The notes beneath the pieces are model-generated. The model searched no databases and had not been told where the DNA came from. It saw only the letters and a program-made list of their open reading frames with translations. Shown here in pieces: positions 28,983 through 29,436 of a stretch of DNA of 64,000 nt. Every line of letters starts with the position of its first letter. Position 1 is the stretch's first letter. The DNA is taken from NCBI RefSeq assembly GCF_003334385.1, contig NZ_QOWN01000003.1; one strand, written 5' to 3'. The translations under genes were made by a program, and so were the position numbers. This DNA is from Escherichia coli (lineage in GTDB: Bacteria; Pseudomonadota; Gammaproteobacteria; Enterobacterales; Enterobacteriaceae).

Positions 28983-29222
28983 CCATTCAGGATGAGGCGG
29001 TAAGCTTCATCCTGATATTCTTGCTTCAGTTGCGGTCCAGTTAATCATTCTAAATAACAACTGCTGAAATTATACGAATTTCGGTATGTATTTTAATTTA
29101 TAGCGATAATGTTATTTTTATTTTCTGCAATGAAAGTCACAAATAATTGTCGCTTAAGTTAAATTTATTTCAAATGATAATAAATATCAGTTCACTTATA
29201 ATTTCTTGCTTTGTAATTTTAA

Positions 29223-29236
29223 TTGATAACGATCAA
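29223..29236. promoter_or_regulatory. FNR-type site (TTGAT-N4-ATCAA) upstream of ydhY
   Basis: Perfect TTGATaacgATCAA in an AT-rich region about 200 bp upstream of the ydhY start codon; ydhYVWXUT is reported to be FNR-activated. Confidence 0.5.
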
Positions 29237-29436
29237 TGTTAAGGGCTCAGAATAATCACATTATTTTTTCTCCTAACCATAAAGGATTAGTTTATCGGCG
29301 TTAATCTTTTCTCATACACTATCGGGTTAGGGAAAATATCTGGTGTTGGGGACAGAGTCAGCAGCGTATTAGTTGAATGCTTAATATCAGGCTGCTGAAT
29401 TGTCAGCACTGTGTTTGCGAAGAGGATGCGAAATAA

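Follow-up and report, generated by a model that had tools for sequence, protein, structure and literature searches.

How is the ydhYVWXUT operon, the product of which is a predicted membrane-associated Mo/Fe-S oxidoreductase, controlled from an AT-rich spacer whose FNR site lies some 200 bp before the ydhY start codon? In the window (the whole 64-kb stretch of E. coli DNA analysed here), ORFs and RefSeq annotation give the gene order pykF (- strand), fumD/ydhZ (+), a 454-bp spacer, ydhY (+), and ydhV, in an orientation that is the reverse of the E. coli K-12 map (Table 1). The spacer, which an earlier sequence-only reading had described as a control region of about 450 bp, is base-for-base the sequence of K-12 MG1655, and published K-12 data are therefore directly applicable to it. 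Published coordinates were converted to window positions with an offset of 1976, obtained by matching the PWM 14-mer of Myers et al. to its NC_000913.3 position. We regard the spacer, with a probability of about 0.9, as the known ydhYVWXUT control region, i.e. a class II FNR promoter with NarL/NarP repression and with H-NS and Fur inputs. FNR binding and activation, the -42.5 position of the site, the H-NS dependence of FNR occupancy, the Fur peak, and Fur-dependent expression have all been published. The interpretation given in the sequence-only reading is supported and all of its parts are already in the literature, where the experiments that it suggested have also largely been carried out; the prior work and the role of Fur had escaped it. 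The present analysis thus carries little weight as a discovery, and the gain is a clean annotation of the window together with one testable detail concerning Fur.

Table 1. Features of the fumD-ydhY spacer and its flanks (window coordinates; promoter positions are relative to the start derived from the published FNR position).
Feature	Coordinates	Strand	Basis
fumD/ydhZ	28773-28982	+	ORFs and RefSeq annotation
Terminator-like hairpin, 12-bp stem followed by TATTCTTGCT, directly 3' of the fumD stop codon	28987-29015	+	Consensus scan
AT-rich tract, equal to the published 318-bp 'promoter island' ydhY/ydhZ	29028-29345	.	GC; PMC3661553 Table 1, entry 1752593_318
Candidate CRP-like site TGCAA-N6-TCACA (form TGnGA-N6-TCACA), centre -138.5	29126-29141	.	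Consensus match
Fur box TGATAATaAaTATCA, centre -90, 14/15 positions of the 7-1-7 consensus TGATAATnATTATCA	29175-29189	.	Consensus scan
FNR box TTGATaacgATCAA, centre -42.5 (class II position)	29223-29236	.	Sequence scan; Myers 2013 Table 1 and Table S6
-10 element C-ATTATT (CATTAT conserved)	29259-29265	+	Position and conservation
5' untranslated leader, ~165 nt	29272-29436	+	Start derived from published -42.5
NarL/NarP-type 7-2-7 inverted repeat TAACCAT-aa-AGGATTA, centre +10.5	29274-29289	.	Consensus match, 6/7 + 6/7
Conserved leader block ATCnGGTTAnGG (+50 to +61), complementary to the 5' end CCUAACC	29321-29332	+	Alignment
Translation-initiation region, Shine-Dalgarno AAGAGGA (29420-29426) 10 nt before ATG	29399-29436	+	Nearly invariant in all genera
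ydhY, first gene of the ydhYVWXUT operon	29437-30063	+	ORFs and RefSeq annotation

The sequence TTGATAACGATCAA at 29223-29236, noted earlier as a perfect pair of FNR half-sites, matches TTGAT-N4-ATCAA at 10 of 10 positions and is the sole exact TTGATNNNNATCAA on both strands of the 64 kb, in which 0.05 such sites are expected (5 of 100 shuffles yield one). It begins 214 bp and is centred 207.5 bp upstream of the ydhY ATG, in agreement with the distance of about 200 bp given in the earlier reading. The same 14-mer is the FNR site predicted for ydhY in Table S6 of Myers et al. 2013 (PMC3688515), listed there as TTGATCGTTATCAA at 1752702 in U00096.2 coordinates, and upon offset conversion this PWM site maps exactly onto the box in the window. 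In the same study, ydhYVWXUT is among the operons under direct activation by FNR and has a single FNR site at -42.5; FNR is found at ydhY in vivo by both ChIP-seq and ChIP-chip, and the published peak centres convert to window positions 29250 and 29232. Both sigma-70 occupancy and expression of the operon increase anaerobically, the operon is called 'Activated' in Table S8, and a ydhY ratio of 0.25 is given in the supplementary expression table (Myers 2013, PMC3688515). FNR binding at ydhY is credited by these authors to Partridge et al. 2008, and FNR at ydhY was also confirmed by an independent ChIP study (PMC2690998). Under anaerobiosis, [4Fe-4S]-FNR most likely binds the box at -42.5 and activates a class II promoter, the transcript of which begins with a leader of about 165 nt.

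A scan for ydhY using one genome per species yielded 30 loci, which are distributed over Escherichia, some 20 species of Citrobacter, and the genera Leminorella and Limnobaculum. Both FNR pentamers are invariant, and the central N4 alone varies, in each of the 26 loci of Escherichia and Citrobacter whose upstream region is complete; the sequence at the corresponding position in the Budviciaceae (Leminorella and Limnobaculum) is TTGATAACGATCAC. Judged from the invariance of the pentamers in these 26 loci, the FNR site is real and under selection rather than a chance occurrence. The Fur box, the FNR box, and the 7-2-7 repeat were found at fixed spacing in 29 of the 30 loci, representing four genera, and the module defined at fixed spacing from the 30 loci comprises the Fur box at -90, the FNR box, the CATTAT -10 element, the 7-2-7 repeat at +10.5, and the ribosome-binding region. 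This module is also present where fumD is absent (Leminorella, Limnobaculum, and the second operon copy in Citrobacter sp. NCU1) and therefore belongs to the ydhY operon. Strain CFT073 (L033) and K-12 share 95.4% identity in the spacer, with 21 differences (20 substitutions and 1 indel in 454 bp), and none of the 21 falls within the Fur box, the FNR box, the -10 element, the 7-2-7 repeat, the ribosome-binding region (including the whole of 29399-29436), or the terminator-like hairpin of fumD. This hairpin probably separates the fumD and ydhY transcripts. In comparison with the K-12 ydhY promoter as published (Partridge et al. 2008; Myers et al. 2013, PMC3688515), there is no difference: the DNA is the same, with an MG1655-identical spacer and the 14-mer at -42.5, and what is added here are the cross-species footprints.

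The distance between the FNR site and the ATG had been taken to imply either a long 5' leader or additional regulatory architecture. The published -42.5 position places the transcription start near 29272 and hence gives a leader of about 165 nt, which bears out the first of these suggestions. Base 29272 is a C, which is unusual as an initiating nucleotide, and transcription may in fact begin 1-2 nt from it. Downstream, the conserved CATTAT begins 29.5 bp from the FNR centre. Neither this element nor its distance from the centre changes among the 26 loci of Escherichia and fumD-linked Citrobacter; GATTAT or a different sequence is found in the remaining four. The C of CATTAT is located at -13, a feature of the ydhY -10 element that we take to be tied to sigma-S. 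In vitro, ydhY is preferentially transcribed by the sigma-S holoenzyme (Maciag et al. 2011, PMC3141248), and the published sigma-70 ChIP peak (Myers 2013) converts to about window 29296.

The 207-bp distance to the ydhY ATG is also the sole support for a different arrangement, in which FNR acts from afar (about -150 to -200, by DNA bending or as an upstream class I/III activator) on a promoter near the ATG that produces a short leader. This arrangement is extremely unlikely, because the published FNR position is -42.5 (PMC3688515), the sigma-70 peak at 29296 lies away from the ATG, and the conserved CATTAT is located exactly 29.5 bp from the FNR centre, which is class II spacing. No promoter-like site was detected on the + strand between 29300 and 29436 in our scan, and the species differ in the distance from the FNR site to the ATG (162 to 248 bp), whereas that from the site to the -10 element is fixed in the 26 loci with CATTAT.

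Regulation of the ydhY operon by NarL and NarP is reportedly the subject of Partridge 2008 (Microbiology 154:608), and, as far as the title of that study goes, the nitrate-responsive repression that had been suggested from the sequence is supported. The NarL/NarP 7-2-7 consensus consists of two inverted TACYYMT heptamers separated by a 2-bp gap. With two mismatches allowed, this pattern is not rare by itself (4 found vs 2.6 expected in the window); in 29 of the 30 loci, the repeat has its centre 52-54 bp downstream of that of the FNR box. The repeat in Limnobaculum is nearer to the consensus (TACCCCC-tt-AGAGGTA, with 1-mismatch versions), and the Citrobacter form shares 13 of 16 positions with TACCCCTAAAGGGGTA, an engineered high-affinity site quoted in PMC4549865. 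The repeat at +10.5 is probably the site of nitrate/nitrite repression, and it is here that we infer the bases contacted by NarL/NarP to lie. In the presence of nitrate or nitrite, phospho-NarL or phospho-NarP would repress the operon, most probably by blocking RNA polymerase at this repeat, as at frdA.

Such an arrangement is shared with promoters of the frdA/dmsA/ynfE type, which FNR activates from a class II position and NarL represses. In these, as in ydhY, the FNR box lies between about -41.5 and -45.5, a NarL 7-2-7 site coincides with the start or follows it closely (-4/+6 in frdA; PMC4549865), and an anaerobic oxidoreductase operon is located downstream. The ydhY promoter differs from this type in that its heptamers are TAAYCMT rather than TACYYMT, its repeat lies further downstream (+10.5), and Fur and H-NS inputs are added. 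Citrobacter sp. NCU1 contains two ydhY loci, L009 on contig 21 and L025 on contig 92 (88% protein identity). In the latter, fumD is absent upstream, the FNR box is retained, the Fur box is weaker, and the right half of the 7-2-7 repeat has been lost; this second copy of the operon may have been acquired horizontally and may lack nitrate repression. Several Citrobacter loci (L012, L013, L018, L019, and L030) carry a 19-nt leader insertion just 3' of the repeat, e.g. TACCCGTGTTTAGGGTATG, which occupies columns 19-37 of alignment A1. The insertion is a duplicate or a complement of the core of the NarL-type repeat (CCCTAAA/TTTAGGG), and the two can form a hairpin.

A leader of this length (113-199 nt in all loci of Escherichia and Citrobacter), preceding an operon that encodes a molybdoenzyme, could itself contain a cis-acting RNA element adding post-initiation control, such as a molybdenum cofactor riboswitch, an attenuator, or a stabilising 5' helix formed by CCUAACC and GGUUAnGG. 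Two conserved leader blocks, +1 to +19 and +50 to +61, are complementary to each other, 96.7% of cells pair in the proposed helix, and one compensatory change, from C-G to U-A, was observed in L025. We nevertheless consider an RNA element very unlikely. An Rfam scan of 28400-29600 at E <= 10 returned two chance matches to eukaryotic families (E = 2.5 and E = 5.8) and no family reaching even E = 1; the fold z-score of the leader is just -1.72, indicating that it is not unusually stable; and RNAalifold applied to 13 diverse leaders gave -9 kcal/mol, the covariation term being close to 0, and identified no compensatory pairs. As for the 5'-end helix, its single compensatory change is confined to the L025 paralogue and was equalled or exceeded in 35 of 500 shuffles, and A29329T breaks the helix in CFT073 without compensation; this candidate was rejected. 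The middle of the leader is lineage-variable and contains lineage-specific insertions, its central 60-70 nt are absent from C. koseri, and the +50 block is missing in Leminorella and Limnobaculum. The conservation of the start-proximal block, +1 to +19, is accounted for by the DNA 7-2-7 site that lies there.

No small ORF of at least 20 aa was found on the + strand of the leader downstream of the start. A four-codon mini-ORF, ATG CGA AAT AAA TGA (window 29426-29440), ends in a stop codon overlapping the ydhY ATG. Escherichia and Citrobacter retain this mini-ORF, and in Limnobaculum it is reduced to ATG TGA; it probably arises incidentally from the conserved ribosome-binding region.

The spacer had also been described as strongly AT-rich, with A/T tracts between about 29040 and 29300, and this description was confirmed: GC in 100-bp windows is 0.22-0.29 from 29050 to 29300, and nine A/T-only runs of 8-14 bp each occur within 29047-29296, the most AT-rich 250-bp segment in the 64-kb window (GC 0.24; next lowest 0.296; mean 0.50). 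The tract is retained across Escherichia and Citrobacter. It coincides with the 318-bp promoter island between ydhY and ydhZ, for which every ChIP study is recorded as showing H-NS binding (Panyukov and Ozoline 2013, PMC3661553). Such islands are strongly AT-rich over at least 300 bp and bound by H-NS, as is the tract according to the AT content computed here and the published H-NS data. Furthermore, ydhYV-T is associated with H-NS in three data sets and is up 2.5-fold with SlyA overproduction (Curran et al. 2017, PMC5797941). According to Table S7 of Myers 2013 (PMC3688515), the average FNR ChIP-chip peak at ydhY rises significantly from 0.295 in the wild type to 1.82 in an hns/stpA mutant. 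Thus, nucleoid-protein binding, which the sequence-only reading had proposed as a further possibility, is documented by H-NS in three ChIP data sets (PMC3661553 and PMC5797941) and by the increased FNR occupancy in the mutant. Table S6 of Myers 2013 (PMC3688515), however, lists no H-NS, IHF, or Fis enrichment overlapping the ydhY FNR site; H-NS may be located beside this site without covering it. A search for the high-affinity H-NS motif TCGATAAATT, allowing up to 1 mismatch, gave no match in the AT-rich tract. H-NS would coat the AT-rich DNA surrounding the FNR box and limit the access of FNR. The ydhY promoter in these respects resembles the hlyE type, at which H-NS silencing is relieved by SlyA and FNR/CRP activate: it is H-NS-bound, its expression rises 2.5-fold with SlyA, and its FNR occupancy is limited by H-NS. 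It differs in lacking a mapped SlyA site and in that the SlyA effect is modest and seen with overproduction only.

A candidate CRP-like site, for which no literature report was found, lies within the tract, 96-108 bp upstream of the FNR centre. It has two mismatches in K-12, where it is weak, and one in CFT073 (TGCGA) and most Citrobacter; that its imperfect half differs by species suggests a real protein site. In some E. coli genomes (FDAARGOS_1077, C9, YSP8-1, and others), an IS1 copy with a 10-bp target duplication is inserted in the AT-rich tract at window 29143-29152 (locus L002, 854-1620), between the CRP-like site and the Fur box and about 120-129 bp upstream of the ydhY start. The IS1 junction was found in at most 42 of 5426 complete genomes. 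A simple promoter scan of the region detected 4 promoter-like sites vs 2.2 +/- 1.6 expected; the published island call was made with another algorithm. A promoter-like match, ATGATA-17-TATAAT (10/12) at 29174-29202, overlaps the Fur box with its -35 element. Its TATAAT (29197-29202) is peculiar to K-12-like E. coli and is not conserved elsewhere in Escherichia or in Citrobacter, and the site was set aside for this reason.

With up to two mismatches allowed, the Fur 7-1-7 pattern has two matches in the 64 kb vs 0.18 expected. In addition to the ydhY box, a perfect 7-1-7 box, TGATAATCATTATCA, is present at window 19468-19482, 46-60 bp upstream of the sufA start codon; belonging to the known Fur-repressed suf promoter, it served as a positive control for the pattern. 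The ydhY Fur box, the conservation of which equals that of the FNR box, is kept at fixed spacing in Escherichia, Citrobacter, Leminorella, and Limnobaculum, its centre lying 47.5 bp upstream of the FNR centre (49.5 bp in the Budviciaceae), and the published maximum of the Fur ChIP-seq peak in CFT073 (1910890) lies 18 bp from its centre. In CFT073, which shows this Fur ChIP-seq peak, the ydhY expression ratios are 0.07 for fur-/wt and 1 for ryhB-/wt (Banerjee et al.). A Fur ChIP peak has also been noted in MG1655, in which the operon RNA is below detection (Banerjee et al.), so that Fur-dependent expression is established for CFT073 only. Both ydhY and ydhV belong to the Fur-2 iModulon. The separation of the Fur and FNR centres, 48 bp, corresponds to about 4.6 helical turns, and by our own reckoning a same-face contact between the two proteins is therefore not favoured.

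Fur activation of the ftnA type, described by Nandal et al. 2010, reportedly operates through H-NS antagonism. The ydhY promoter would resemble this system in having a Fur box well upstream of the core promoter, AT-rich H-NS-bound DNA, and a RyhB-independent positive effect of Fur, and would differ in having a single strong Fur box instead of several and in its added FNR requirement. At ydhY, we infer both the bases contacted by Fur and the mode of its activation: Fe2+-Fur on the conserved -90 box would be needed for full expression and would most probably counteract H-NS, with SlyA overproduction acting in the same direction as Fur. In its strict form, in which the box at -90 is an obligatory anti-silencing element and Fe2+-Fur opens the H-NS-coated tract for FNR, creating a three-input gate, this proposal is a tentative one to which we give somewhat less than even odds. 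If it is true, the gate would read iron present AND oxygen absent AND NOT nitrate/nitrite, and the enzyme complex so gated would be one that is costly in Fe-S clusters and molybdenum. The conserved Fur box at fixed distance thus suggests how iron sufficiency and anaerobiosis are integrated at the ydhY operon. No prior statement was found in the literature of the exact ydhY Fur box with its genus-spanning conservation at fixed distance, or of an anti-H-NS mechanism of Fur at ydhY.

The overlap of the Fur box with the 10/12 promoter-like match, in a tract that is a published promoter island, would also be compatible with an indirect effect, in which Fur silences a non-productive promoter at 29174-29202 whose polymerase occludes the FNR box and no displacement of H-NS is involved. 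However, the TATAAT of this site is limited to K-12-like E. coli, whereas conservation of the Fur box extends throughout the Escherichia and Citrobacter loci, and a transcript starting from this site would enter ydhY and be expected to raise its expression; such an indirect effect is very unlikely indeed. The N-terminus of YdhY (residues 1-43, window 29437-29565; ...LTRLEFLRISGKGLAGLTIAPALLSLLGCKQ), taken from the translated sequence alone, shows a twin-arginine-like motif in degenerate form (TRLEFLR) and, after it, a lipobox-like LLGC.
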